Part shown: piece after piece, positions 6,268-40,398 of the stretch
Layout of the letters: each line of letters opens with the position of its first letter
Numbering within the stretch: the first letter of the stretch is position 1
Source of the DNA: a virus
Strand: one strand, 5' to 3'
Length of the DNA stretch: 64,000 bases
Virus record (IMG/VR): IMGVR_UViG_3300045988_154248
Program-made: the position numbers and the translations under genes
Notes under the pieces: generated by a model
Database searches by the model: none
Told to the model about the DNA's origin: nothing
Seen by the model: only the letters and a program-made list of their open reading frames with translations

Positions 6268-6343
6268 TGGTTTTTGTCCTCTCTTTATGTAAATAGTTAT
6301 ATGTTTCTATGTAAGATTATTCTCCTATGATCCGTTTATAAAA

Positions 6344-6394
6344 AGCGTTCTACAATTTATATTCTTAATAGGTTAGAATTGATTGTAGAACGCT
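6344..6394 (-). terminator. intrinsic terminator closing the NAD operon
   Basis: Perfect 13-bp stem agcgttctacaat / attgtagaacgct (6344-6356 / 6382-6394), followed on the minus strand by TTTTTAT, 39 nt after the nadE stop. Confidence 0.6.
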
Positions 6395-6432
6395 CATGAT
6401 GGTGAATTGTTGTGGTTATTTTAGAATGCAAA

Positions 6433-7191
6433 TCAGTCTAAATATGATTTCAGACCACTTTCAAAATATGGAATTGGTCTTCTCTTGAATCTGTATTTTT
6501 CAACCCTTGCATCGATAATAGCTTTTACTGCAGCATCATCAATTTCACCTGTTCTTGCATACCGATCGAATACAGAATATTTAAATCCAAGAGCGCTTTC
6601 ATCAGAAGATCCACATAATCCGTCTGACGGCGTTTTGTCAACCATCTTTTTCAGTAGAATCGTCTCATATCCAATAGCTTTTACTTCCTGTACTGTGAAA
6701 TCCTTTAATGGTGCAAAGTCTCCTACTGCATCGCCCCAGCGAGTTTCCCAAGATAAGAGTGTTTCCGAAAGATTGCATGTATTAGCAACTCGTCCATTCA
6801 TACTCTGTGAAATTGCATAAAGTGTTGCCATTCTGATTCGAGGAGGCAGATTAATTGATGTCTGTTTTGACCAATGATCACCAATTTGTGGTCTGATTTC
6901 GTGCTTTAGCGCAAGAATTGCTGGATGAATATCTACAGTACAGTATTCAATACCTAAATGTTTAGCAACTTCATAGGCATCTTCAATATCTGTCTGTTCT
7001 CCGTCTGGCATGAGCACACCTAAAACTCTATTCTTTCCAAGAGCTTCCACACAGAGAGCCGCAACAATGCTTGAATCTTTACCCCCTGAAAGACCTACTG
7101 TGGCAATACAATCTTTCCCATTCTGCTCAAAGAACATTTTAATCCACTCGACAATCTTATTTTTTGTTTCTTTTGCATCAAAAGTATACAT
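6433..7191 (-). CDS. nadE: NH3-dependent NAD+ synthetase
   Basis: PP-loop VGLSGGKDSS, then INLPPRIRMATLYA, GDFAPLKDF, KTPSDGL..SDE..LGF..Y. Start set at ATG 7191 behind AAAGGAGAGGAGAA. Confidence 0.85.
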   Translation of the reverse strand: MYTFDAKETKNKIVEWIKMFFEQNGKDCIATVGLSGGKDSSIVAALCVEALGKNRVLGVLMPDGEQTDIEDAYEVAKHLGIEYCTVDIHPAILALKHEIRPQIGDHWSKQTSINLPPRIRMATLYAISQSMNGRVANTCNLSETLLSWETRWGDAVGDFAPLKDFTVQEVKAIGYETILLKKMVDKTPSDGLCGSSDESALGFKYSVFDRYARTGEIDDAAVKAIIDARVEKYRFKRRPIPYFESGLKSYLD

Positions 7192-7208
7192 ATCTATTCT
7201 CCTCTCCT

Positions 7209-7715
7209 TTACTGATTTAATTTCCACAGTTCAACATGAGTATCAAGTTCATTAAAAATCTTCTGTATCATTGAATATACTTCGTCCCAATCTGCTCCAC
7301 CACGATCACAGCCGATCTTATATGGCATAGCAATTGTTGCACTAAAATTATTGTTCCTTTCATGTGCTTTCCAACACATAGTTCTAAAACACTTTTCTAA
7401 TGCTTCCAGAGAAGTATATTGTTTTCCGTCATATCCATAGTTATCTTGTGCAAAGAAATTACAAATCCACTGTTCATTACTTGGAATTGCAATCGATCCA
7501 CAGTCGTATCCAATATATTTTGGCTTGACTGGTACAATTTGTACTTTCCCCAGCATATCCGATGATGCTACCTTTTTATATTCTTCGTATACATGTGGAA
7601 ATCGCTGTCTGACCTGCAAAGCCACGCCAGATCCCATCTTTCCCATACAATTTACCTGATGACAAATAAATTTTGCATCCGTATCAAATAAATTTCCTTC
7701 GATAATTTCAATCAT
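7209..7715 (-). CDS. macrodomain protein (ADP-ribose binding/hydrolase fold)
   Basis: IEGNLFDTDAKFICHQVNCMGKMGSGVALQV is a typical macro/Appr-1''-p processing N-terminus. Start at ATG 7715 behind GGAGAA. Confidence 0.75.
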   Translation of the reverse strand: MIEIIEGNLFDTDAKFICHQVNCMGKMGSGVALQVRQRFPHVYEEYKKVASSDMLGKVQIVPVKPKYIGYDCGSIAIPSNEQWICNFFAQDNYGYDGKQYTSLEALEKCFRTMCWKAHERNNNFSATIAMPYKIGCDRGGADWDEVYSMIQKIFNELDTHVELWKLNQ

Positions 7716-9180
7716 GATTTTCTCCATTTAGTCTTTCACGAATCTCTTCAAAAGTCTGTTCTTTTACTAATTCTCCATCTTTAAAGACGAGTTTCAGTTC
7801 ATTTTCTTCTGGCATTGTATCTTCTGCATAACCATCATGACACACGAATTTATTTTCTTCTTTTACTACACAGCAAAGTCCTTTATGAGATTTCTTCAGA
7901 TTATTTTTATCTGTTTTTGGATTCTTCTGAATGGTATATTCTTTGCCATCAATTACACAATAAGTGCTCTTCATTGCAAATCCAAAAGTATCTCTTGTTA
8001 AGCAAACCATTCCATCTTCTGGCGTACACATTGCAGAGAAAGAAAACGCACCTACTCCAAAAAGAATCGCATCTGCTGCAAATCCTAATCCTTCAAGCTG
8101 TGTCCAAATCTCTTTGATCTTACTGTACTGACAACCATCTCCGTAAATGATTCCAATCTTTGGATTTAACTCCTTATAACCTTTTGAGTTTACAGTTCCA
8201 CCAAAAATCTGATATAATTTCTGAACAGTTTTTACTGAAATTTCAACGATATCGCCGCTATCAGGACGTACAAGGAATTTGCCATTATGCTCTTCGATTT
8301 CTTTTCTCAGTTTTGGAAGTGTTTCGTCAATAAGGTTCCAGTAATCAAATGTATCAGAGACATAACTGAAAGATGTATTCTTATATGTATCAGTCAGTAA
8401 TCTTCTTAACAGATTTTCTTCTGTCTCGCATACAGCCAGATTACTGCATACGGTTGCATGTTCCAGGCTAACTGCTCCAATACCAATATGGTTCTTAGCA
8501 CAATCAGCATCGTACATTTTATCAATATACTGAGTTGCAGGAATTGTAGAAGTTTTATTGAAAGATAGCAGCCATGAAGAACTTGCATGAACTCCGTTCT
8601 CAATGCCGAGTCCTCTGAATCCAAAATCCGCCATAGCCATTGCAGGATTAGCACCATCTGTAGTTTTCTCGTAAAATTCATTTGCAAGTGTTTTATATTT
8701 ATGACCTACAGTTGCCCAGTTGCATGTCCCAAAAATAAAAGACTGCATAATGCATTCCAGCCATTGTACCGTCCATGCGAAATCCGGATGTGCGTTACTC
8801 ATCTCAATACACGGGACTCCCATTGTTACAACAGATCCTTCTGGAAGAGCTTTGATCTCTACAGGTAAATACTGCAGATCCCATAATTTTTCGATACGTC
8901 CAAGATCATAACTCTGAGAACCGATCTGATTATCCAGATATTCTTTATATTCTGCAATAACTTCTTTTTTGGGTCTTTTGAAGAAAGTTTCATTTGCTAA
9001 ATCAATCATATATTCCTTAATAAAACCCTGTAATCCAAAGAATACAACTTCATTCAGATTTTTGAACATTGATTTTCTAGGAGTAATATAAGAAGTTAAT
9101 TTTGTAAGACCCTTTGGAAGAGCATCAGGATTTGTATTTTTATATGTATCTGCCATCAGCATAAAAGAAATGTTTCTCAT
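7708..9180 (-). CDS. nicotinamide phosphoribosyltransferase-like enzyme (NAMPT/NadV family; possible Namat)
   Basis: ADTYK, LVRPDSGD and IIYGDG motifs of the NAMPT family. Start set at ATG 9180 (GGAGG SD), directly after the upstream stop. Confidence 0.8.
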   Translation of the reverse strand: MRNISFMLMADTYKNTNPDALPKGLTKLTSYITPRKSMFKNLNEVVFFGLQGFIKEYMIDLANETFFKRPKKEVIAEYKEYLDNQIGSQSYDLGRIEKLWDLQYLPVEIKALPEGSVVTMGVPCIEMSNAHPDFAWTVQWLECIMQSFIFGTCNWATVGHKYKTLANEFYEKTTDGANPAMAMADFGFRGLGIENGVHASSSWLLSFNKTSTIPATQYIDKMYDADCAKNHIGIGAVSLEHATVCSNLAVCETEENLLRRLLTDTYKNTSFSYVSDTFDYWNLIDETLPKLRKEIEEHNGKFLVRPDSGDIVEISVKTVQKLYQIFGGTVNSKGYKELNPKIGIIYGDGCQYSKIKEIWTQLEGLGFAADAILFGVGAFSFSAMCTPEDGMVCLTRDTFGFAMKSTYCVIDGKEYTIQKNPKTDKNNLKKSHKGLCCVVKEENKFVCHDGYAEDTMPEENELKLVFKDGELVKEQTFEEIRERLNGENHD

Positions 9181-9181
9181 T

Positions 9182-9997
9182 TTAGACCTCCATAACTGTG
9201 ATTTTATCGTGTTTTCCTGTGAAAAGACTGTCTGTTGTAAATAATCTTTCAACTGTTCCATCTTCAAGTGATTTGATTAATGTTCCTTTTTCTCTATCAA
9301 GAACTGAATTTTCGGTATGTGATGCATAAGCATAAATTCTATCTACACCACGTTCTTTCAACGCTTTTGCACTATAATATAAAGAACCGCCATATGAAAT
9401 GATGTCATCAATCATCAAAACTTTTTTACCTTTAAGATCAATATCGTTATCTCTGATTTTGAGTCCAAGAATTTTTCCTGTATTCCAATCTCGATTTTTC
9501 TCACCATAGCAATACGGAATGTCAGAAAACAATCCAGAATATCTTTTCGAACTACCGGCATCCGGAAAATAAAGAATAAGATTTTCTTTACTAATCTGCT
9601 CAATTACTTCATCAATATATTCTCTTGGATTAAAAACATATACTCTATTCAAAAGCGCTGCTCCAACATTACTATGAACATCAAGTACCTCTACTCTATC
9701 AAATTCGAGCCAATTAATAACATCAGCGAACCCTTTTAATGTAAAAACCTCGCCCTGATCATGGATTCTGTCCATTCTGGCATTCGGAAGATAAAACATT
9801 GTAAGATCAATTGATTTAATATATGGAAAATTTTTTAAATGTTTTGTAATATAAATCAGCGCTGAAAGTTCTTCTTCTTTCTCATACTTCCATGTAATGT
9901 TGTTATATTTCTGATAAAAACAATCGTCTAATACGATTCTCTGTGTTCCATCTGGAAAGTGTTCTACTTTTACTTCTTTCCCATTTAAAATGATCAT
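9182..9997 (-). CDS. ribose-phosphate pyrophosphokinase-like enzyme (Prs family; possible ADPR-PP synthetase Adps)
   Basis: FPDAGSSKRY and PRPP-loop VLMIDDIISYGGSL; start at ATG 9997 behind GGAGAAT. Confidence 0.75.
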   Translation of the reverse strand: MIILNGKEVKVEHFPDGTQRIVLDDCFYQKYNNITWKYEKEEELSALIYITKHLKNFPYIKSIDLTMFYLPNARMDRIHDQGEVFTLKGFADVINWLEFDRVEVLDVHSNVGAALLNRVYVFNPREYIDEVIEQISKENLILYFPDAGSSKRYSGLFSDIPYCYGEKNRDWNTGKILGLKIRDNDIDLKGKKVLMIDDIISYGGSLYYSAKALKERGVDRIYAYASHTENSVLDREKGTLIKSLEDGTVERLFTTDSLFTGKHDKITVMEV

Positions 9998-10001
9998 ATC
10001 T

Positions 10002-10514
10002 TTATTCTCCAATCACATTAATCTGGCAGCTTTTCATGGCTTCGAGTGCCGCCTTATGTTTTTCTGGTGTAGATCCCGCGCAACAGCCTGCGTCTACTGT
10101 AATTTCCGTATTTGGAAACATAGCTTTAAGGACTAATGCATTTGAAATTACACATATATCCGTACACAAACCGACCAGATCGATATCACCATCTCCAATC
10201 CATGTCATATTTCTCCACTGCAAAGTTCCAAAAGTACTTTTGTTTACATATCTGCAGTTAGGAACCTCAATGTCGCTCACAACCTTCCATCCTCTTGTTC
10301 CAAAAACACAATGTTTTACTGGAAGTTTTCTTCCCTCCAGAGTATTTAAGTAATCGTCATAATGCGTATCTCTTGTAAAAATAATTTGATCTCCACGATT
10401 ATAATACTCTTCAATTTTCTTTTTCACATTCGGAATAATCGCCTGTGCTTCTTCCGATCCAAGGCTACCATTTACGAAATCATTCTGCACATCTACTACA
10501 ATTAAAGTTCTCAT
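10002..10514 (-). CDS. pncA: nicotinamidase / isochorismatase-family hydrolase
   Basis: LIVVDVQNDF..GSL N-terminus and catalytic-Cys context GLCTDICV; 170 aa. Confidence 0.75.
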   Translation of the reverse strand: MRTLIVVDVQNDFVNGSLGSEEAQAIIPNVKKKIEEYYNRGDQIIFTRDTHYDDYLNTLEGRKLPVKHCVFGTRGWKVVSDIEVPNCRYVNKSTFGTLQWRNMTWIGDGDIDLVGLCTDICVISNALVLKAMFPNTEITVDAGCCAGSTPEKHKAALEAMKSCQINVIGE

Positions 10515-10717
10515 TGTTTATTCTCCTCTCTTACTTCGTCAAATCTCTTTACCCAGTCCTCAAATGACACATCGTCTCCCACTGTGCCATCGTATTTACA
10601 CATCCAATATAGAGTTTTCTTTCTCTCGTATTCCAAGTCATCTCTTAAATTATGAATAATTGATTGAGCAAAATCTTTCATGTGATTGTATTCGCTTTTT
10701 AAGACTAATCCAAACAT
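10511..10717 (-). CDS. hypothetical protein
   Basis: ORF track 68 aa; 4-nt overlap with pncA-like start. Confidence 0.5.
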   Translation of the reverse strand: MFGLVLKSEYNHMKDFAQSIIHNLRDDLEYERKKTLYWMCKYDGTVGDDVSFEDWVKRFDEVREENKQ

Positions 10718-10854
10718 TAAATTTCCTCTTTATCTTCTGCAAGTTTATTCCAAACACTTGCAATCTCATCATTTACTTCACAGGTCGTTTTACCATCGAT
10801 TGAAATTCCAATTTCATCCAGATATTCCTTTAATTCAGACATCGTATTTTTCAT
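10717..10854 (-). CDS. small hypothetical protein (45 aa)
   Basis: Own call: MKNTMSELKEYLDEIGISIDGKTTCEV..; GGAGAA SD; TAATG overlap with next gene. Confidence 0.4.
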   Translation of the reverse strand: MKNTMSELKEYLDEIGISIDGKTTCEVNDEIASVWNKLAEDKEEI

Positions 10855-10879
10855 TATTTTTTCTCCTTTTTTCAATATT

Positions 10880-11044
10880 TTAGTAATAATTACTATTTTC
10901 TAATTTCGATTCTTTTTTATATCTTTCGATGTATTCTCGGACACGTTCATACGCTGCAGGAATGCTAATATGTTCTTGCAGTAAAAGTTTCTCTACAGCT
11001 GTTCGTTCCATAAGAATTTTTCGATCGTGTTCTTCTTGATTCAT
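10880..11044 (-). CDS. small hypothetical protein (54 aa)
   Basis: Own call: MNQEEHDRKILMERTAVEKLLLQEH..; GGTGA SD-like upstream. Confidence 0.4.
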   Translation of the reverse strand: MNQEEHDRKILMERTAVEKLLLQEHISIPAAYERVREYIERYKKESKLENSNYY

Positions 11045-11098
11045 ACTGATCACCTTATAAGTTTGGCTGACCAGTTTACACCAGCCAGCCGTTTCTTT

Positions 11099-11479
11099 TT
11101 AGTCTAATTCATCAAGCATTTTCTGCAGATCTTCTACGGAAGCGTTTTGAAGTGCCTCATCCTGCTTAGTAGCAATGATCTGCATAATTTTCTGTTTCTT
11201 CTCTTTACGTTCTGCAGCTTCCTGCTGATTTTTCTTTTCTTCAAGTTTCTCGTTAAAGATATATTTTACAATCTCAATCTTGGTCGCAAGAATATCATCT
11301 TCCGCAGATTTAGTCTGAAGCAGACTTTCTTCATCCGTCTTCTTTACTTCTGCATTCAGCGTCTTAAACACTGTATCCAGCGATCCAAGCGAAAGATCAT
11401 ATAAATCTTCTACTGCAATCTGTCCCTTATACGGGAAACGATATTTACCTTTTACTGCTTTTTCAAACATGTCACCCAT
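11099..11479 (-). CDS. hypothetical coiled-coil protein
   Basis: ORF track 126 aa; Lys/Glu-rich heptad-like sequence. Confidence 0.55.
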   Translation of the reverse strand: MGDMFEKAVKGKYRFPYKGQIAVEDLYDLSLGSLDTVFKTLNAEVKKTDEESLLQTKSAEDDILATKIEIVKYIFNEKLEEKKNQQEAAERKEKKQKIMQIIATKQDEALQNASVEDLQKMLDELD

Positions 11480-11496
11480 AATTTTATTCTCCTTTA

Positions 11497-13560
11497 TTAA
11501 AATTTAATTTTAATGGTTCTTTCTGTTGCACCTTTTACTTTAACGATAAGCTCATTACGCTGCGTCAGACTGAATCCAACTCCAGAGAGCTGATCATCGA
11601 CGTCTGTTACACTACACTTTGCGCCAAGTGCCTCAAATACTTTACGATGTGGAACTAATTCATTCTTAAGATATTCCACAAAGAAACCATTCGGCTGTTC
11701 TGGATTTACGCATCCATTCAGGAAGAAGAAAAGATGTTTATTCCCGATTCCATTCTGCTCATCAAAATAGTTCGGGCTGTAACTGATTACAGATACAGGT
11801 GTAAACTGATTTGTCTGCACTCCCCATACTTCTCTACTAGAAGTAGCCGAGTGACCAAAAAGTTTTTCTTTGATGGTAAAGTTTCCGTTCTTATCCATAA
11901 TTACTTCTGCGACGTCTACGTCTCCACGCACTGGGTTATTGTATTCAAACGAATAGATCTCGCCATCGAATTCAATTTCTGCTTTAAATCCTTTACTTCC
12001 TCGACTAGCAAACTGATTTACAAAAAATTTATAAACACCTGGCATCATTTTTAATTTATTCTGCCAAGTAATATTCTCTACTGCCGGTTTACCTGGCATC
12101 TGATTCATTGGCTGTGTAATATCAATATCAAGCTGACCACCAAGCTTCGACATAGATGGTTTTCTATCACTACCAAAATAGATTTCATGACCATTTGGTT
12201 CAATACAATGAGCATCAAGATCACTGTTATCGTTCTGATCCTCGTTCCACATAATAGAAAACCTAAGCACACCATCTACATTTCCACCAGCGTTCTTTAC
12301 ATTCTGTTTAATGTCAGAGTCAGTAATATTGCCTGTATATGCCCAGCTCAGACCATTATTCCACTTGAACATTGTTTTAGAATCAGGATCTTCTGGCGCA
12401 ATTAAAGAAACAAAATTCTTTTCATGTTTATTCTCTACAAATACTTCAACCTCTTTCGCAGTCGGAAGAACCTTTTCTACGAAATCCTGTGCAGTCACTT
12501 CTTCTACTCTAGAAAATTTCTTTGGATTAACTGCTACAGATTTTGACATCTCTGTAAAAATGTCTCCTCCACCAGAAATTCTCTTCGCTGCATCTTTATT
12601 AGAAAATAGAATATTATTTACTGTGATATCATCCAGATTTGCAAAGCGACGTTTCAGAGAATCCATATATCCAAGTTCTGTCAACGTTTTCTTTGCATCG
12701 TCCAGCATTCTCTGAGTATAAATTGGCTTACTCCTTTTATAGTTGCTGGGTGCTACAATCTGCTCGTATTTCTTTACTGCAAGATCGAGGCCCATTCCTT
12801 CGCTTACATTTACAAGTAGTGTTCCAATAGAATGATTTCTGATTTTACCAATAACGGCTCCTGCTTTTAGAGATTTCTCCCAGGCATAAAGATTTTTCTC
12901 TTCTTCCGGAATTTTGTCGTATTCCTTTTTGTATTTCTTGAATTCAACCAGCGGAATCCTCCACTCTGCTCCACGATACAGCGTATTGGAATTAATCAGC
13001 TCAAGAATTGTTTCCACAGAATCCATAGTGATCTCATCCAGAGAACGTTTAAATACGTTTTTAATATCTCTGTATTCACCATGGATATTACCTGCAGATC
13101 TACGAGAGTCAAATACAAACTTATCAGGAAGTCTCATATAAAAGTGATCCCACTGATGAGATTTTCCGTTGATCATTTCAAAGTTCTTATCTGTGCCAAT
13201 ATTTTTAAGCTGACTTACAAAAACATCGACTACCTCTTCGTTATGGATAAGTTTGGAAAGTGCCTTGACTACCGGCTCATAAATAGTTCCAGACATATCT
13301 ACATCCCAAATACTTTCCATTTTATTATCCTTGATTACAACCACAGCGCCGATTGTACGAATGAACTGGCGGCAGCAGGTACAGTCATGTTCTCTTCTCT
13401 CTCTAAAAATATTGTTCGTTCCTGGCGCAAAGCTATCGAGATATGTATCCCACAGCAGCTCCTTGTCTACGTCCACTTCGAATAACTTATCTGCATTTGC
13501 GGACATTTTATTGAAATGTTTCTGAAGCTTCTCCTTAAAAATTACGAACTGATCTAACAT
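11497..13560 (-). CDS. large hypothetical protein (687 aa)
   Basis: ORF track. N-terminal HDCTCCRQF Cys cluster. The C-terminal segment LRFSIMWNED..DLDAHCIEPNGHEIYF..GGQLDIDIT resembles, from memory only, YfaP/DUF2135-type beta-sandwich domains. Confidence 0.6.
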   Translation of the reverse strand: MLDQFVIFKEKLQKHFNKMSANADKLFEVDVDKELLWDTYLDSFAPGTNNIFRERREHDCTCCRQFIRTIGAVVVIKDNKMESIWDVDMSGTIYEPVVKALSKLIHNEEVVDVFVSQLKNIGTDKNFEMINGKSHQWDHFYMRLPDKFVFDSRRSAGNIHGEYRDIKNVFKRSLDEITMDSVETILELINSNTLYRGAEWRIPLVEFKKYKKEYDKIPEEEKNLYAWEKSLKAGAVIGKIRNHSIGTLLVNVSEGMGLDLAVKKYEQIVAPSNYKRSKPIYTQRMLDDAKKTLTELGYMDSLKRRFANLDDITVNNILFSNKDAAKRISGGGDIFTEMSKSVAVNPKKFSRVEEVTAQDFVEKVLPTAKEVEVFVENKHEKNFVSLIAPEDPDSKTMFKWNNGLSWAYTGNITDSDIKQNVKNAGGNVDGVLRFSIMWNEDQNDNSDLDAHCIEPNGHEIYFGSDRKPSMSKLGGQLDIDITQPMNQMPGKPAVENITWQNKLKMMPGVYKFFVNQFASRGSKGFKAEIEFDGEIYSFEYNNPVRGDVDVAEVIMDKNGNFTIKEKLFGHSATSSREVWGVQTNQFTPVSVISYSPNYFDEQNGIGNKHLFFFLNGCVNPEQPNGFFVEYLKNELVPHRKVFEALGAKCSVTDVDDQLSGVGFSLTQRNELIVKVKGATERTIKIKF

Positions 13561-14474: not shown

Positions 14475-15977
14475 TTACGCTGCGTTTCCTTTCCCAACAA
14501 GAAAGTTTTCGAAATCTCGTTTCATGAATCTGAAATTAATACCCTGATTGGAACTATATTCATCATCTGCATTCTGATATTCTCCAATCCACTGTTCAAA
14601 TTCCTGATCCTGATTATTCTGCGCTGCATAAACCATCAATGCAATTAACGCTGTTTTACACTGCTGATAAACATTTGCAGACACTTTTGTATTCTGAAGA
14701 CACTCGTTGTAAAATTCGATGTCGTCTGGATCTACTTTCTCATTTACATGAGTATGTACAAAATCAATATCATTCTGATCAATACGATCATCAACACCAA
14801 TGATTGCAGATTCTTCACCCTCTGAATTTTCTGATGAGTCTTTGATACTTTCGCTCTCTGCATCTTCATTTGGTTTATTCTCTTTAATATGTAAAAAATC
14901 CACTAATAAAGTATGTAAATAATCAATCTTCTGCTGAATTACTTTTTTGTCCTTCGTGTGTTTATCCTGTTCTATTTCAATCCAATCAGTATCATTGACT
15001 TTGATTTCTTTCATGTCATTAAATGCAATCAGGAATTTTCCAAAATTTTCTGGTGAAACTCCTTCATCTAAGGCTCTTTTCATAAGAGTCATCCATGCCA
15101 TAAAATCTTTTGGCACAAATAATTCAGCTACTTCTGTATGATCGAGTTTATCTGCGTAAGGAATTAACATATTAAAGTATTTGTTCAGTGTATCAAATTC
15201 TTCTTCTGTTCCGTTCTCATTAAGATACTTGCAGATATCCCTTGGCGCCTTTTTCCATTCTTCTAAATGAAACATCGCCATAACGCATTCGATGATCACT
15301 CTTTCCCAGATGCCTTTTTTCTTGTCTAACTCATTCAGCATCGTACAATCTTTAAGAAAACGATTATTATCTTTAATCCGTTTAATTTTATCCGCAAATG
15401 TACCAATGTAAGTAAACGCCTTCTGGCTTACATTCATTGGAATAGTAGAGTTATACAACATGACAAGATCGCAGGTATCTTCTGGAGTACATTCCTGATA
15501 AATTGCAGCAGACAACTGACATGATCTCATTCTCTTTTTCAGTTCTGGTGGGAAATCATTATAAGTTTTATTAACCAGATCAAATGTTTTGATTTCTTTG
15601 ATCAGTTTTCCATTTTCATCTCTCATAGGTTTTCCATTTTTATCCAGTTTGTTTCCTTGATAAGTCACATATCTATTCCGGATTGATTTAGAGATCTTAT
15701 GCCCATCAAACACAAAACGTCTGAGCGCTTCTGTTCTCTGACCACCATCCACTACGTATGTAGTAGTAAGCCCATCTTCTCTTTTTTCTTCTGCAAGAAT
15801 AATGTTGGGAATGTAAATCCGTTTTGGAGATACAGTACTATAAATCAAATTATTGATCATTTCATTTGACCAACAAAACGCTCTCTGGACTGCCTGATCA
15901 ACAGTAATAACTTCCTCATCAATACTATCAACATAAGCTCCTACGCCCATCTGTTCGATTCTGTATTCATCTAACAT
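14475..15977 (-). CDS. DUF262 (GmrSD N-terminal, ParB-like) domain protein
   Basis: VVDGGQRTEALRRF is a DGQQR-type motif about 75 aa from the N-terminus; 500 aa; no obvious His-Me/HNH C-terminal nuclease motif seen. Confidence 0.55.
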   Translation of the reverse strand: MLDEYRIEQMGVGAYVDSIDEEVITVDQAVQRAFCWSNEMINNLIYSTVSPKRIYIPNIILAEEKREDGLTTTYVVDGGQRTEALRRFVFDGHKISKSIRNRYVTYQGNKLDKNGKPMRDENGKLIKEIKTFDLVNKTYNDFPPELKKRMRSCQLSAAIYQECTPEDTCDLVMLYNSTIPMNVSQKAFTYIGTFADKIKRIKDNNRFLKDCTMLNELDKKKGIWERVIIECVMAMFHLEEWKKAPRDICKYLNENGTEEEFDTLNKYFNMLIPYADKLDHTEVAELFVPKDFMAWMTLMKRALDEGVSPENFGKFLIAFNDMKEIKVNDTDWIEIEQDKHTKDKKVIQQKIDYLHTLLVDFLHIKENKPNEDAESESIKDSSENSEGEESAIIGVDDRIDQNDIDFVHTHVNEKVDPDDIEFYNECLQNTKVSANVYQQCKTALIALMVYAAQNNQDQEFEQWIGEYQNADDEYSSNQGINFRFMKRDFENFLVGKGNAA

Positions 15978-18166: not shown

Positions 18167-18538
18167 TCATCCCTCCATTAATAATGTCTGTAAACTAATC
18201 TGCATTGCTCTGTTCACTTCTTTTTGCTTTTTGGGACTAATCTCTCCGATCTTATCCAACAATCTAGCTTTATCTATTGTTTTAATTTGTTCACATGTTA
18301 CTAACGAATCGGAACTTAATCCATTCAACGCATCTTTTTCCAAAATGACATGAGTAGGAAGATTGGGCTTCCTTTTTGATGTGATTGCCACGACTATGGT
18401 TGTTGGAGAATGTTTATTCCCAATGTTATTTTGGACAACAAGTGCTGGGCGTTTTCCGCCTTGTTCAGATCCTTTCGTTTTCCCGAAATCTACCCAATAG
18501 ATTTCACCACGTTTAATTTCGCCACAATGTACATCCAT
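18167..18538 (-). CDS. mazF: MazF/PemK/EndoA-family mRNA interferase toxin
   Basis: GEIYWVDFGKTKGSEQGGKRPALVVQNNIGNKHSPTTIVVAITS matches the PemK-family core. Confidence 0.8.
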   Translation of the reverse strand: MDVHCGEIKRGEIYWVDFGKTKGSEQGGKRPALVVQNNIGNKHSPTTIVVAITSKRKPNLPTHVILEKDALNGLSSDSLVTCEQIKTIDKARLLDKIGEISPKKQKEVNRAMQISLQTLLMEG

Positions 18539-18735: not shown

Positions 18736-19065
18736 ATGATTAAATTAGATATCCAACATTTAATATTGACTAAGTATAAAAGTCAAGCTGCATTTGCAGA
18801 AGCTACTGATCTCTCTTTACCATCAGTGTCAAAAATTTGTTCTGGTAATATGGCAAGTATTCGCTTTGAAACTCTTGAAAAAATTTGTGAAGCATTAGAA
18901 TGCACCCCGAATGATCTACTTACTTCCGATAAAAACGAATGGGATACAAAAATTCCATCACATGTTACAGAATATATTGATCGAATGGAACATATCTCGC
19001 AAGAAATCCAGGATGCGAGTTTCCGTTATAGAGCTGCAGCATATCATAAAAAAAGCGATGACTAA
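18736..19065 (+). CDS. XRE/Cro-C1-type helix-turn-helix transcriptional regulator
   Basis: KSQAAFAEATDLSLPSVSKICSGNMASIRFETLEKICEALECTPNDLL is an HTH_3/HTH_26-like core. ATG 18736 sits behind GGAGG; divergent from mazF. Confidence 0.7.
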   Translation: MIKLDIQHLILTKYKSQAAFAEATDLSLPSVSKICSGNMASIRFETLEKICEALECTPNDLLTSDKNEWDTKIPSHVTEYIDRMEHISQEIQDASFRYRAAAYHKKSDD

Positions 19066-19733: not shown

Positions 19734-20267
19734 TTACCTTTCTAAATATTTTGTTGGTACTTCTTTGGTTAACCAAACATTATTCACAGACAGGAAAAAC
19801 TTGTATCCATCTCTGCACATTTGCCCTGAGTTTACTTGATATACGATTTCTTTTCCATGTCTCTTACCAACCTGTTCAGCCGTTTCCACATCTGTTGAAA
19901 GATGAACATATAACCGGCTTTTTGGAATTAACCCAATCTGATCGATTGACACTACGTATTTTTCGCCAGTTCCATGATATAAAAATTCTGGTGGCTGTTT
20001 CTCTTCTAACTCTACATCTACAGGAATCGAATGTCCTTGGTTGCATCTGATCAGTGTTTTATCTTCATTAAAAGAGTATCTTCCCTTCGAATCTGTTTCT
20101 ACGATCTCGTACAGATGATCCAGATCGAATCCAGGATTGTCTTTCCTAATCCCGTCAATCAGTTCGTCGACATTAGCCCACCCATGTTCATCCAAAGTAA
20201 TGCCAATTGCTTCTGGTTTATGTCTGAGAATCAAACACATGTATTTACTAATATTTTCTAAGTTCAT
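19734..20267 (-). CDS. kptA: RNA 2'-phosphotransferase (Tpt1/KptA family, NAD+-dependent)
   Basis: [48 protein letters not shown] and LYVHLS match the conserved Tpt1 blocks; 177 aa. Confidence 0.85.
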
Positions 20268-27192: not shown

Positions 27193-28158
27193 CTATGCAG
27201 TTTCACCCAACAGAATTTTTCTAAACAGGCTTTCAAAAATTGGAACACAAATACTATTGCCAGCCTGTTTATATAATGCTATTTTATATCTTCCTCGTTT
27301 CTGTTGTACAGATGCAGCTGCTTCATAATCCTGATCCGTATATCCCATAAGTCGCCAGCATTCTCTTTCTGTAAGATATCTATACTTTCCATTATGTAAG
27401 TCAATTACCTGTGCAGGTGTCCGATCCTGGCGAGTCGTGATTGTATAAGCATATTGGTCAATTACAGTTGCTCTTCTAATTCCGGATGCGCCAATACATT
27501 CCAGAATGCTCGGTTGTGTTACCTCATATACTGGATCAACTTTCTGTTCCAAAAACTCGTGAATATCTCTCATTGGCGTTCTAATCAAATCAGAAAAATC
27601 AAATTTCTTTCCTTTTAAACAACTTACAGTGAAATAGCGTTCTCTTGCTTGTGGAATACCAAACTCTCTTGCGTCTAATAGTTCATATGTACTTGTATAT
27701 CCAAGTTTACTTAATTCTTCCATATATCTGTCGTGATTATGCACCATATATTTACTTCTGACATTTTTAACATTTTCCCAAATCACATATTTTGGTTTCC
27801 ATTCTCCCATCTGTTTAATAATATTAATTGTTTCCCACATAAGACTCGATCTTGTCCCAGACCCTTCTTCTGCGCCAGCTCCATGATTTGTTCTTCCATT
27901 TCCAGTAGCTGTGCCTTGATGCCCAGCGACAGACATATCCTGGCAAGGAGAACCATGTATCAGAATATCTGGACGAAGATTGTATCCGACCACTGTTTGC
28001 GTTTTATACGAAAGATCTTTTGCGAACATTGCATTATATGATCTGACTGCTGCTTCGTCAATTTCAACATAATCAATTGATTTAACAGGAATACCGATAT
28101 TCCGTAATGCGCACCGTGGACTTCCAATTCCACCGAATAATTCTAAAATTTGTACCAT
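27193..28158 (-). CDS. DNA (cytosine-5)-methyltransferase
   Basis: Motif I ELFGGIG, motif IV GSPCQDMS, motif VI WENVKNV, motif X QAGNSI; no adjacent restriction endonuclease recognised. Confidence 0.85.
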   Translation of the reverse strand: MVQILELFGGIGSPRCALRNIGIPVKSIDYVEIDEAAVRSYNAMFAKDLSYKTQTVVGYNLRPDILIHGSPCQDMSVAGHQGTATGNGRTNHGAGAEEGSGTRSSLMWETINIIKQMGEWKPKYVIWENVKNVRSKYMVHNHDRYMEELSKLGYTSTYELLDAREFGIPQARERYFTVSCLKGKKFDFSDLIRTPMRDIHEFLEQKVDPVYEVTQPSILECIGASGIRRATVIDQYAYTITTRQDRTPAQVIDLHNGKYRYLTERECWRLMGYTDQDYEAAASVQQKRGRYKIALYKQAGNSICVPIFESLFRKILLGETA

Positions 28159-28215
28159 AATAATTTCCTTTCTTATATAAGGCGGTAAACAGGAAGTCTA
28201 CCGCCTCGTTGATGT

Positions 28216-29220
28216 TTAGATAATATTTTTCATGATTTCTACAGATTCTTTTTGTGCTTTTTCTTCCATTCCTCTTACATATAACAGCGTTGTATTAATT
28301 GATGCATGATGTAAATTTTTCTGTACAAGCACAATATCACCCGTTGCGTTGTACAATGTAGTACCATATGTTGCCCTTAGTTTATGTGGACTAATTGTTT
28401 TTCCTTTTATATTACAAGCATATTTTTTTGTAATATCTGAAATTGCACTTGTTGACAATCTCTTCCCGGTTTTCCCAAGAAATAGAGCCGGTGTATCGCA
28501 TACTGTTACAAGTTGATCTCTGTATGATAACCATTTCTGCAATTCATCCAAAACTTTCGGAATTAAAATGAATGTATGAACTTTTTTCCCCTTGTCTGTT
28601 ACAATCAAAGTTCCTTTATCCATATTTAAGTTTTCTATATCCATATTAGATAACGCTGCACAACGCACACCTGTAGAAAGGAAAAGTTTTATGACTGCAA
28701 TATCCCTTTGTGACCAAATAGCTGATGGTTTTCTTGTTTTTCCTGTTAGCTTATGATCAACATTATAAAGATACGTTTGTGTTTCTTCTAGTGTCAAATA
28801 GCTCTTTTCTCTTCTTTCTATTGTTCTCTGTTGCTCTCTCTTTTTTGGCTTCGCAATTTCTTCCATATAATTTTTCGAAAAAATTTTATATGCAAACATA
28901 CATTTTGAAAAAAGTTTTAGTGCAGAATAAACTGCAATTTGATAAGAAGAAACTGTTTCTAATCCATTGTCTTTATCTTGTATTTTTGCCATATAGGATA
29001 CAAAATCTCTCAGTTCAAGATCTTCTTCTTTTTCTTTTTCTGTGAACTTTAGAAATTTTAATACATCACACATGTAAACATATTTTGTCTTTTCTGATAA
29101 ATCATGCATATATAAAAGGAAGTCTTGTAGATTCTTAGACTTCCCTTTCATAATATTTTCGATTTTTCGTTTATATTTAAGTTTTTCTTCCTCTAAGCCT
29201 GTCTGGACTCTTTCATTCAT
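28216..29220 (-). CDS. tyrosine recombinase / phage integrase family
   Basis: TGVRCAAL (Arg I region), HKLRATYGT, LHHASINTTLLYV (His..Tyr). Start at ATG 29220 behind GGAGGAATAAA. Confidence 0.8.
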   Translation of the reverse strand: MNERVQTGLEEEKLKYKRKIENIMKGKSKNLQDFLLYMHDLSEKTKYVYMCDVLKFLKFTEKEKEEDLELRDFVSYMAKIQDKDNGLETVSSYQIAVYSALKLFSKCMFAYKIFSKNYMEEIAKPKKREQQRTIERREKSYLTLEETQTYLYNVDHKLTGKTRKPSAIWSQRDIAVIKLFLSTGVRCAALSNMDIENLNMDKGTLIVTDKGKKVHTFILIPKVLDELQKWLSYRDQLVTVCDTPALFLGKTGKRLSTSAISDITKKYACNIKGKTISPHKLRATYGTTLYNATGDIVLVQKNLHHASINTTLLYVRGMEEKAQKESVEIMKNII

Positions 29221-34580: not shown

Positions 34581-35906
34581 CTATAAATGAGCAAATCCAA
34601 AATATTGCACAAAAGAAAGACACCCTCTGTAGAAGGATGTATAATTGAAGTACCAACAAACAACATACTCACTCAAACAAGGGGGTGTCCGTTGCAAACA
34701 GTATACATCATTCCAAACATATTTACAATTACCTGAAAGCATTAAATCTCGGATTATTTTTATCCGATGTGTATCTGAACCACTTATTGACCATCATCCT
34801 GTCTGTTTTTCTCCGGGGATACCGGGGAAAAACAGTTGATTTCCAAGAAGTCAGCCATTGCCACAGGACAACGACCGCTTATTTCCTGAATCACGGAAAA
34901 TGGAAGGACGATGCATTGCAGGATGTTTTAAAAAGCAGCATCCTCCAAGCCATTTATAGGGAAGCACAGCGTTCCGGACAACCGATTTACTGTATTGTGG
35001 ATGATACGATTGCTTCACATACCCGGCCTTCGTCACAGGCGGTTCATCCAATCGAAGCTGCGTATTTTCATCAATCACATTTAAAAGGCTGTCAGGATTA
35101 TGGGCATCAGGTTGTCTCCGTTATGCTTTCCTGCAACGGGATTACCCTGAATTATGCAGTCATCCTGTACGATAAATCAAGATCAAAGATCCAGATTGTA
35201 CAGGAGATCGCGGAAGAACTTCCCGCTGCGCCGGTCATTTCCTACTTTCTTTGTGACAGCTGGTATACTACTGCAAAAGTGATGGACCGTTTTATTCGGA
35301 AAGGATTCTATACGGTTGGGGCATTAAAGACCAACCGAATCCTTTATCCATGCGGGATCCGTCAAAAAGCCAGTGCATTTGCCCTTCATTTGCGGAAAAC
35401 AGACCCGGATGTCAGCCTCGTGACCGTTGGCAGCCGTGAATTCTATGTATACCGCTATGAAGGGGAGTTGAATGGCATTCCAAATGCAGCGGTGATCCTC
35501 AGCTATCCGAAGGATGGATTTGGGAATCCCAAAGCATTGCGTGTATTTCTCTCTACAAATGCAGAGTTATCCACGCAGGAGATCCTGGACACCTATACGA
35601 AACGGTGGCCGATTGAATTATTTTTCCGGCAGAGCAAAAGTAAACTTGCGCTGGATAGTTATCAAATCCGATCCCGTCAGGGAATCCAAAGGTATTGGCT
35701 GATCATGTCGTTGGTCCACTATTTGTGCTGTATGCATTCTGGAAACTACTGCACATTCGAAGAGGGATACGCATCCTTGAAGCAGCAGCTAAAGCAGGAA
35801 CAGTTTGCAAACCTGTACCGCCTCATAAAAAGCAGCGCCTCATTCGAAGAAGCTTTTAAGTTTGTGGGATAAGTTTGTGCAAAATTCGATATTTGCTCAT
35901 TTATAG
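34581..35906 (+). mobile_element. insertion sequence, IS4/IS701-like, 1326 bp, intact
   Basis: Terminal inverted repeats CTATAAATGAGCAAAT (16/16, extending imperfectly to ~33 nt). 7-bp direct target duplication TAATCTT at 34574-34580 and 35907-35913. Single DDE transposase ORF. Visibly higher G+C than the flanks. Confidence 0.85.
34685..35872 (+). CDS. DDE transposase (IS4/IS701 family)
   Basis: 395 aa; IVDDT, CDSWY and the Y-x2-R-x3-E-x6-K block YTKRWPIELFFRQSK. Confidence 0.8.
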   Translation: MSVANSIHHSKHIYNYLKALNLGLFLSDVYLNHLLTIILSVFLRGYRGKTVDFQEVSHCHRTTTAYFLNHGKWKDDALQDVLKSSILQAIYREAQRSGQPIYCIVDDTIASHTRPSSQAVHPIEAAYFHQSHLKGCQDYGHQVVSVMLSCNGITLNYAVILYDKSRSKIQIVQEIAEELPAAPVISYFLCDSWYTTAKVMDRFIRKGFYTVGALKTNRILYPCGIRQKASAFALHLRKTDPDVSLVTVGSREFYVYRYEGELNGIPNAAVILSYPKDGFGNPKALRVFLSTNAELSTQEILDTYTKRWPIELFFRQSKSKLALDSYQIRSRQGIQRYWLIMSLVHYLCCMHSGNYCTFEEGYASLKQQLKQEQFANLYRLIKSSASFEEAFKFVG

Positions 35907-39540: not shown

Positions 39541-40398
39541 TCATTTCATTGTCTCAATTTTTATTAATGGTTTTATTCTTCTCCTACCAACATTTTTCCC
39601 TTGTCGTTTAAGTAACGATAAAGTTTTATTATATGTTTCAACATCTATAATTGGCTCAAAATTTCCTTTATAAGTTTCTCCACAAAAAATATTGTACCCA
39701 CAATATTGTGTTCGTGTAAGAATTTTTTGAACACTATAAGCTGTTGGGACTTTGCCTCTCTTACCTTTAAATCCTCTTTCTCTTGCTTCTTTCGCAACTT
39801 CTGATAAATTTTTTCTTAACGAATACTCAGAAAAACAAAAACGCACATATTCTGCTTCTTTTTTATTGATTTTAAATGAATCCTTTCCATCTAAATCATA
39901 TCCTAATATTTCAGAACAAGTACGTTTTCCTTGTGCGGCTCTCTCTGCCATAGCTGCACTAACTCTTTCACTTGTTAATTCTCTTTCTAGCTGTGCGAAT
40001 ACACCAACAATGCCAATCATTGCTCTACCCATTGGAGTAGATGTATCAAAAGCTTCAGTATATGAAACCATAGATATATTCCATTGTTGGAATTTTTCCA
40101 TTGTCGAATATAAATCCGATACACTTCTTGTAAATCTACTAAGTGCCCAAAATAAAACTAAATCAAATTTCCCATTTTTTGCATCATATAATAATCTATT
40201 TATATCTGGTCTATGTTCAATATCCTTTCCTGAAATTCCTTTGTCTGCATACAAATCATAAACATTATATTTCCGTTCCTCACACCATTTCCTAAGCGTT
40301 TTTTCTTGTGCATCTAAAGAATATCCTTCACGGACTTGATCGAGTGTGCTTACACGTATGTATATTGCTACTTGTTTTTTATTCTCCACATACAACAC
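39541..40398 (-). CDS. serine recombinase (resolvase catalytic domain plus recombinase domain, short form)
   Basis: VAIYIRVSTLDQ (catalytic Ser), DLVLFWALSRFTRS, GVFAQLERELTSERV. At 285 aa it lacks the zinc-ribbon/coiled-coil of large serine integrases. Confidence 0.8.
   Translation of the reverse strand: MLYVENKKQVAIYIRVSTLDQVREGYSLDAQEKTLRKWCEERKYNVYDLYADKGISGKDIEHRPDINRLLYDAKNGKFDLVLFWALSRFTRSVSDLYSTMEKFQQWNISMVSYTEAFDTSTPMGRAMIGIVGVFAQLERELTSERVSAAMAERAAQGKRTCSEILGYDLDGKDSFKINKKEAEYVRFCFSEYSLRKNLSEVAKEARERGFKGKRGKVPTAYSVQKILTRTQYCGYNIFCGETYKGNFEPIIDVETYNKTLSLLKRQGKNVGRRRIKPLIKIETMK

Follow-up and report, generated by a model that had tools for sequence, protein, structure and literature searches.

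NAD+ reconstitution pathway 1 (NARP1), described for SpbetaL1 and Bas63, consists of the two enzymes Adps and Namat (Osterman et al. 2024). In Vibrio phage Gary a third enzyme joins them, giving the Adps-Adpp-Namat operon termed NARP1-AP (Osterman et al. 2026, bioRxiv 10.64898/2026.01.28.702374); according to the same preprint, Adpp is a Poa1p-like Macro protein that converts ADP-ribose 1''-phosphate (ADPR-1''-P), a product of the aRES defence, to ADP-ribose (ADPR), and is present in 15% of 859 NARP1 operons. NARP2 pairs Nampt with Nmnat, and RyDEP and NARP3 are other published extensions or routes. Here we describe a five-gene operon on the minus strand of the gut phage recorded as IMGVR_UViG_3300045988_154248 in IMG/VR, analysed within a stretch of 64,000 nucleotides (the window) of a genome of about 200 kb. 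A NARP1-type pair is encoded there together with a nicotinamidase (PncA), a Macro-domain protein and an NAD synthetase (NadE), and the Namat-like transferase has lost the Asp that recognises nicotinamide. The loss of this residue from the central enzyme makes a route through nicotinate and nicotinic acid adenine dinucleotide (NaAD, or deamido-NAD) probable, and on balance we lean towards the view that the operon is a deamidated variant of NARP1, working in series through these two compounds.

The operon and the features on which the argument depends are as follows; all lie on the minus strand.

10002..10514, minus strand: PncA-type nicotinamidase, 170 aa, the first conserved gene of the operon (PF00857, E 2e-27)
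9182..10012, minus strand: Adps-like homologue of phosphoribosyl pyrophosphate (PRPP) synthetase, 276 aa (phrog_619, E 1e-61)
7708..9180, minus strand: Namat-like transferase of the Nampt family, 490 aa (phrog_448, E 3e-147; 9W5X, E 2e-98)
8545..8559, minus strand: NKTST specificity motif inside the Namat-like gene, containing K209 and S211 (translation verified)
8467..8469, minus strand: codon of S238 inside the Namat-like gene (translation verified)
7209..7727, minus strand: Macro-domain protein, 172 aa, Adpp-like (PF01661, E 3.6e-6; phrog_335 'phosphatase', E 7e-45)
6433..7227, minus strand: single-domain, NH3-dependent NadE, 264 aa (PF02540, E 6e-46)
about 6343..6395, minus strand: intrinsic terminator at the end of the operon, with a 14-bp stem and then UUUUUAU
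10511..10717, minus strand: open reading frame (ORF) of 68 aa directly upstream of PncA, with a 4-nt overlap (no family match)

The five main ORFs (PncA, Prs-like, NAMPT-like, Macro and NadE) run end to end or overlap. An initial annotation of this DNA had described them as a minus-strand NAD+ operon, and every ORF and family assignment holds, as do the motifs it quoted, all of which are found in the translations; a sixth, small ORF also lies in the same range. The terminator, to which it had given a 13-bp stem, is real (dG -22.3 kcal/mol, z -5.4), and none of 200 shuffled sequences folds as well.

How does this locus compare with the described systems? Like NARP1-AP it combines an Adps-like enzyme, a Namat-like enzyme and a Poa1p-like Macro protein in one operon without Nmnat, and its Macro protein is homologous to that of canonical three-gene operons. 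It differs in that PncA and NadE are constant partners, the nicotinamide-binding Asp is gone, the adenine clamp is modified, the Macro protein is dispensable in the window's relatives, and the transferase is predicted to yield NaAD rather than NAD+. With NARP1 itself it shares the two enzyme families, the adjacency of their genes and their catalytic cores, but the transferase has the changes D215S, A242S and G213K (SpbetaL1 numbering), a selectivity-clamp helix motif broken at position 7, a 10-aa insertion and a place in a deep sister clade. NARP2 is set apart by its Nmnat, for which there is no partner gene in the window: Pfam scanning of non-overlapping ORFs of at least 70 aa across the 64 kb gave no Nmnat/cytidylyltransferase, Nudix, PnuC or NadR domain at E <= 1e-4, and both tblastn with phage NadD and NMNAT motif scans of the window were negative, in agreement with the initial annotation. 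The first and last enzymes of the Preiss-Handler pathway (PncA-PncB-NadD-NadE) are present, and sister phages carry the complete pathway at the same locus; here, however, Adps-like and Namat-like enzymes replace PncB and NadD, and the ribose-phosphate-adenylate part of the product would derive from ADPR, not from PRPP and ATP. In bacteria, the only NARP1 tested so far is that of Paenibacillus foliorum (PMC12774641). It resembles the Clostridia operons described below in being a NARP1-type pair in a chromosome, but it is canonical, 72% identical to SpbetaL1 Namat, whereas those operons have Ser or Ala in the pocket and are accompanied by PncA, NadE and NrtR.

The three enzymes additional to Adps and Namat had been taken to lie outside the described NARP1 and NARP2. 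For the Macro protein this no longer stands, since it has been published as part of NARP1-AP, whereas the addition of PncA and NadE seems to be new. Our literature search found no report of NARP1 combined with a nicotinamidase or with NaAD chemistry, and the genome paper of phage Phass-1, a distant carrier of the operon, does not discuss it.

The pocket of the Namat-like enzyme

The Namat-like protein is about 41% identical to SpbetaL1 Namat (9W5X/9W5W), which it matches at E 2e-98, as against about 1e-40 for human and other true NAMPTs. Its Prs-like partner scores 91.7 bits against TIGR01251, under the 113-bit Prs cut-off, and its matches to phage Adps, at E 3e-32 for Bacillus phage Zuko and 9e-26 for ABurr gp178, are stronger than those to solved Prs proteins, of which the best is 1.4e-15. 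The counterparts of the published Adps residues (F19, R79/R82, F90, H113, D151, K172 and D202/D203) are invariant; the published set R87, H121, D161, K185 and D212/D213 corresponds to R79/R82, H113, D151, K172 and D202/D203 of the window, again invariant both in canonical systems and in those linked to PncA and NadE. This residue test discriminates only weakly, because most of these residues are common to Prs, and since the PDB search returned no solved Adps structure, membership rests on the alignment with phage homologues and on the residues quoted in the paper. Judged from these profile comparisons, the pair is of NARP1 type, as had been proposed, and not of Prs/NadV type, and the predicted reaction of the Adps-like enzyme is ADPR + ATP -> ADPR-PP (its pyrophosphorylated form) + AMP.

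The catalytic core of the transferase is invariant (D11, Y13, F186, R189, H241, R305, D307, R396 and D397 in the window). Around the nicotinamide site, three residues have changed. Ser211 aligns with Asp215 of SpbetaL1 Namat and Asp219 of human NAMPT, K209 stands in place of an invariant Gly (SpbetaL1 G213, human G217), and S238 in place of an invariant pocket Ala (SpbetaL1 A242, human A244). In the SpbetaL1 Namat crystal structure (9W5X/9W5W), Asp215 hydrogen-bonds nicotinamide, the D215A mutant loses 8-fold in nicotinamide-dependent NAD+ synthesis, and A242 is named among the residues of the nicotinamide pocket. For human NAMPT, specificity is set by Asp219, and a review table says of the D219S mutant that it 'switches the substrate affinity', citing Khan et al. 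2006; G217, A244 and H191 are described as lining the tunnel beside the nicotinamide site.

These substitutions are general among proteins of this kind. When 69 canonical Namats were compared with 43 distinct phage proteins encoded with PncA or NadE, both groups proved invariant at the ring-stacking and catalytic residues (D13', Y15', F189, R192, H245, R306, D308, R399 and D400). All 43 linked proteins have D215 replaced by Ser or Ala, A242 by Ser and G213 by Lys, Arg or Asn, and 39 of the 43 also have Ala for H187; at position 242 the division is complete, with Ala in 69/69 canonical proteins and Ser in 43/43 of the Ser/Ala (S/A) type. As far as the alignment can tell, the remodelling is restricted to the carboxamide side of the pocket, with a net loss of one negative charge, a gain of two hydroxyls and usually a gain of one positive charge. 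This is presumably the change that a carboxylate ligand would require, and the predicted reaction of the enzyme is nicotinate + ADPR-PP -> NaAD + pyrophosphate.

The identity of the pocket residue, its class assigned by alignment, follows the gene context perfectly in three datasets. Among 80 canonical viral Namat loci from IMG/VR, Asp occurs in 51 and Glu in 29, each preceded by Gly, and none of the 80 has PncA, NadE, PncB or NadD within 8 kb. Besides the 43 linked phage proteins, all 119 classifiable metagenomic homologues (55-99% identity) carry K-T-S-T, and the best 80 Clostridia loci in species-representative genomes carry Ala (66) or Ser (14); a single-protein scan of bacterial genome contigs had given no match, and it was an alignment-based scan that found these Clostridia loci. 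Neighbour-joining placed the S/A proteins in a single deep clade that is sister to all the canonical Namats; Phass-1 branches apart from it, at a deeper point. The Glu found for Asp at the nicotinamide-binding position (G-S-E-T) of 29 of the 80 canonical Namats, among them those at loci L128-L163 (the locus labels are ours), is a natural variant that the accessible text of the structure paper does not mention.

Flanking enzymes, cassette exchange and chromosomal operons

Why should a NARP1-type pair travel with PncA and NadE? Both flanking enzymes have the conserved features of their families. The best solved relative of the PncA is P. horikoshii PncA (1ILW), and in the alignment the catalytic Asp, Lys and Cys (VVDVQ, NKSTF and GLCTDICV) and the Asp-His...His metal site (RDTH...KHC) are kept; the homologue in Phass-1 is annotated as a nicotinamidase. 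NadE scores 151 bits against TIGR00552 (cut-off 63.65), has the SGGKDSS P-loop but no CN-hydrolase domain, and has 2E18 as its best PDB match; it may in fact begin at the ATG at 7191. The predicted reaction is NaAD + ATP + NH3 -> NAD+, although a preference for NaAD over nicotinic acid mononucleotide (NaMN) cannot be read from the sequence.

Evidence on what passes between these two enzymes comes from related gut-phage contigs of 90-208 kb, which hold alternative architectures in one frame. The window's arrangement, PncA-Adps-Namat-Macro-NadE (type A), alternates with one in which an ORF with a HAD motif (DFDDT; phrog_1238) stands in place of Macro (type B, to which Phass-1 also belongs); some relatives have nothing between Namat and NadE. 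In type C, the same PncA gene heads the cassette PncA-(radical-SAM-like)-DUF5662-PncB-NadD-NadE, a complete Preiss-Handler pathway (PncB, NF003704, 480 bits; NadD, TIGR00482, 102 bits). The DNA of types A and C is 88-99% identical up to the end of PncA and again from the start of NadE, and unalignable between; the NadE genes themselves are 98.8% identical between NARP1-type and PncB-NadD-type sister phages. With the flanks constant and the middle unalignable, Adps-Namat(-Macro) and PncB-NadD are interchangeable cassettes, implying that they share the same input, nicotinate, and the same output, NaAD. None of the 80 listed, out of at least 94 contigs carrying NadD, is of type A. Beyond this group the five genes are also found, rearranged, in MT835544 and, with no more than 29-48% identity, in Phass-1, and the minimal conserved unit, PncA-Adps-Namat-NadE, is contiguous in independent NCBI, ENA and Logan contigs.

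The Preiss-Handler cassette of the sister gut phages (L052, 7105-10771; also L012 and L079; at least 94 IMG/VR contigs, some with the radical-SAM-like gene) is an observation in its own right, and we found no description of it in the literature as a phage NAD+ pathway. Its DUF5662 gene (PF18907; L052, 7607-8173) also occurs about 550 nt upstream of the Glu-type canonical Namats of another gut-phage group (L128-L163), at 45% identity, and may encode an uncharacterised protein associated with NAD salvage. L011, closely related to the window phage, has at 10001-11741 a PncA gene and then PncB in two pieces, ORFs of 301 and 108 aa, without NadD or NadE; this looks like a decaying Preiss-Handler cassette.

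The Clostridia loci belong nearly all to Lachnospiraceae or other Clostridia, cultured isolates included. Within the best 80, an NAD synthetase is present in 75 (counting the long, Gln-dependent NadE) and PncA in 73, and several of the loci that lack one or the other end at contig edges. In some operons a two-domain, Gln-dependent NadE (NF002730, 780 bits) is found instead, so that NadE function is retained through replacement of the short enzyme by its long paralogue. Since 74 of the 80 loci share no other gene with the window, they are chromosomal operons and not copies of the window phage. In 56 of the 80 the S/A-type operon adjoins a gene for an NrtR-like, ADPR-responsive repressor with Nudix and winged helix-turn-helix domains (for example L272, 9434-10324; NF050029, E 4e-41, below the cut-off), which implicates ADPR as a substrate of the pathway; no NrtR was seen at the phage copies of the operon. 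On the evidence of this distribution, the four-gene core would be native to gut Clostridia and captured by their phages. One locus, L250 in Ruminococcus sp. AM36-2AA (QTYB01000001.1), has a type-A operon with a Namat 56% identical to that of the window, together with homologues of the window genes at 2-1867, and may represent a related prophage and offer a hint of the host.

A serial pathway and its alternatives

The serial pathway that we favour would begin where NAD+ has been cleaved to ADPR and nicotinamide. PncA would convert nicotinamide to nicotinate and NH3, the Adps-like enzyme would make ADPR-PP from ADPR and ATP, the S-type Namat would form NaAD from ADPR-PP with nicotinate in place of nicotinamide, and the NH3-dependent NadE would amidate the NaAD to NAD+. 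The Adpp-like Macro protein, or a HAD-like protein or NADAR in its place, would be an optional feeder of free ADPR, in the case of Macro from ADPR-1''-P. A series of this kind would account for the equivalence with the PncB-NadD cassette and would not need host PncB or NadD. It also fits the fact that many Firmicutes salvage nicotinamide only through PncA. From the pocket, the covariation and the cassette exchange we infer the nicotinate and NaAD chemistry; the operon would also act against host defence.

Several points weigh on the other side. The serial route costs one ATP more than NARP1 and brings no demonstrated benefit. Its biochemical anchors are mutants of other enzymes only, D219S being taken from a review table, and Ser can still hydrogen-bond an amide, so that use of nicotinamide, or of both compounds, is possible. 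Because the S/A proteins form one deep clade, the covariation amounts to one or two evolutionary events over a long divergence, not many, and may in part reflect common ancestry. The second-best solved relative of the NadE is that of Francisella, which prefers NaMN. Nmnat, PncB and NadD are lacking from the window, which covers only about a third of the genome. Finally, the adenine clamp is altered. Its aromatics F379 and F381 remain, whereas the equivalent of Y396 is Ala, followed by the 10-aa insertion, and where the selectivity-clamp helix motif reads GSXphiXphiXphiTRD, with aromatics at positions 3 and 7, the window has GAFSFSAM, 10 further residues and TRD, with aromatics at positions 3 and 5 and Ala at position 7; the insertion is 8-10 aa long across the S/A group. 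Specificity for ADPR-PP as the donor is uncertain for this reason, and our inference of it draws on the Adps partner and on the links of the neighbourhood to ADPR.

The alternative that survives best has two routes working in parallel, with Adps, Namat and Macro acting as an ordinary NARP1-AP on nicotinamide while PncA and NadE boost the Preiss-Handler pathway of the host; in a variant of this idea, the transferase is a Namat of dual specificity. The catalytic-core residues of the Namat are indeed all intact, the Ser could bind the amide, and PncA and NadE could descend from a Preiss-Handler ancestor. Host Nudix hydrolases, moreover, can remove ADPR, which would leave surplus nicotinamide for salvage, and to our knowledge NadD is near-universal in bacteria. 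What parallel routes leave unexplained, however, is the absence of Asp or Glu from every linked enzyme and its presence in every unlinked one, and equally the Ala of 66 of the 80 Clostridia loci, a state that costs SpbetaL1 Namat 8-fold with nicotinamide. PncA would also compete with Namat for its substrate, and even in deeply diverged operons the four genes remain next to one another, in many cases with overlaps. We consider such an arrangement rather unlikely. The initial annotation had itself proposed a parallel branch dependent on host PncB and NadD, and had noted the paradox of a nicotinamidase competing with Namat for nicotinamide. The serial reading is the more economical, since the loss of Asp covaries with the linkage and the pair occupies the slot of PncB-NadD, and the paradox disappears if the Namat-like enzyme, without its nicotinamide-reading Asp, takes nicotinate.

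The Macro gene lies directly downstream of the Namat-like gene, within two genes of the NARP1 core, and its product is predicted to be an Adpp-like ADPR-1''-P phosphatase, in agreement both with published NARP1-AP and with the earlier suggestion that the macrodomain releases ADPR from ADPR-1''-P. With the Macro of L094, a canonical Adps-Macro-Namat operon, it shares 41% identity and the conserved motifs, and it is related over its full length to its positional homologue in Vibrio phage ABurr, gp179 (25% identity, E 2e-9). Could it instead be a DarG/TARG1-type ADP-ribosyl glycohydrolase that reverses DNA or protein ADP-ribosylation, for example to counter DarT? Its best PDB match is the DarG macrodomain 5M31 (E 9e-12), ahead of Poa1p 6LFU (E 7e-5), it matches NCBIfam antitoxin_DarG at E 1.8e-21, and NADAR genes accompany some of the operons. 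The NCBIfam score of 76.8 bits, however, falls far below the cut-off of 250, and the position of the DarG catalytic Lys, which we take to be K80 of TaqDarG, is variable across this Macro family (D, N, K, S or M). The motifs shared with canonical Adps-Macro-Namat operons belong to a class shown to be ADPR-1''-P phosphatases, and in relatives the same slot is filled by a putative phosphatase of HAD type. A DarG-type function was accordingly judged unlikely, and more so than parallel routes.

In relatives of the window phage the Macro slot is empty or holds the HAD-like ORF or NADAR. The HAD-motif protein, of 135-139 aa, lies between Namat and NadE (L039, 9630-10035; Phass-1, L001, 4784-5203) and may be a non-homologous phosphatase that replaces Macro; the NADAR-domain gene (PF08719, E 3e-27) is an extra accessory at L016 (13261-13692), L252, L256, L261 and others. 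The window also encodes a Tpt1/KptA RNA 2'-phosphotransferase (19737-20267, minus strand; PF01885, E 4e-42), an enzyme that consumes NAD+ to give nicotinamide and ADPR-1'',2''-cyclic phosphate, a precursor of the Macro/Adpp substrate. It was rejected as a specific partner of Macro, being present in both NARP1-type and PncB-NadD-type sister phages.

The remaining alternative is that the pair is a Prs and a nicotinate phosphoribosyltransferase (NAPRT)-like enzyme, making PRPP and then NaMN from nicotinate and PRPP, with host NadD forming NaAD, the operon's NadE finishing and ADPR no substrate at all; the pocket change would suit nicotinate equally, the adenine clamp of Namat survives only in part, most of the Adps residues compared are common to Prs, Namat keeps PRPP activity in vitro and the classical annotation of NrtR-regulated prs-nadV operons assumed a supply of PRPP, but we regard it as improbable given a Prs-like protein that is nearer to phage Adps than to solved Prs and under the Prs cut-offs, a transferase far nearer to Namat than to Nampt, clamp aromatics kept at positions 392 and 394 where NAMPT has Gly and Leu, the Macro, NADAR and ADPR-responsive repressor genes that accompany the operon, and a sister-phage swap that replaces PncB and NadD together, not PncB alone.

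Surroundings of the operon and implications

The operon genes are identical in a second IMG/VR contig, 3300045988_147192 (199,892 bp); megablast of the locus against GenBank phages gave no match, and its relatives came from protein-level searches. The 68-aa ORF upstream of PncA (10511-10717) has no Pfam, NCBIfam or PHROG match, is kept only in the close relatives L004-L011 and lies outside the conserved core. A scan for sigma-70 promoters showed no enrichment (18 found against 22 expected from shuffles). The terminator scanner used with it missed the real terminator, which has a long loop and was detected by folding against shuffled sequences. Further upstream, at 11497-13560 (minus strand), is a 687-aa protein without a Pfam match, whose homologue, labelled DUF8224, is conserved on the upstream side of the operon in independent contigs. 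A DDE transposase at 34691-35869, on the plus strand and thus opposite to the operon, lies in a local rise of GC content (0.397 against about 0.32) and is probably an insertion sequence. The window further encodes a MazF/PemK toxin with a neighbouring HTH gene, a GmrSD_N (DUF262) protein, a C5 DNA methylase adjoining a tyrosine integrase, and a serine recombinase; the coordinates of these genes are 18170-18517 (minus), 18736-19062 (plus), 14478-15977 (minus), 27196-29220 (minus) and 39544-40389 (minus). General domain scans of the ORFs showed no structural genes in this 64 kb, and a tRNA scan of the window found none.

NAD+ depletion is a major anti-phage strategy of bacteria, and the reconstitution of NAD+ is the main metabolic counter-measure known so far. 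The broader proposal, for which we see about as much chance of its being right as wrong, is that the Ser/Ala-type Namat is an undescribed nicotinate:ADPR-PP transferase that forms NaAD, and that PncA, Adps, this Namat and NadE make up a fourth reconstitution route, native to gut Clostridia, controlled there by ADPR-responsive NrtR, captured by their phages and interchangeable with the Preiss-Handler cassette. For annotation, the pocket offers a simple sequence test, Gly-Thr/Ser-Asp/Glu as against Lys/Asn/Arg-Thr-Ser/Ala. If the proposal is true, a much-studied enzyme family would gain a new activity, and it would be clear why PncA and NadE travel with the NARP1 pair. The route would then be a regulated, chromosomal pathway of salvage in abundant Clostridia of the human gut, as well as a phage weapon.

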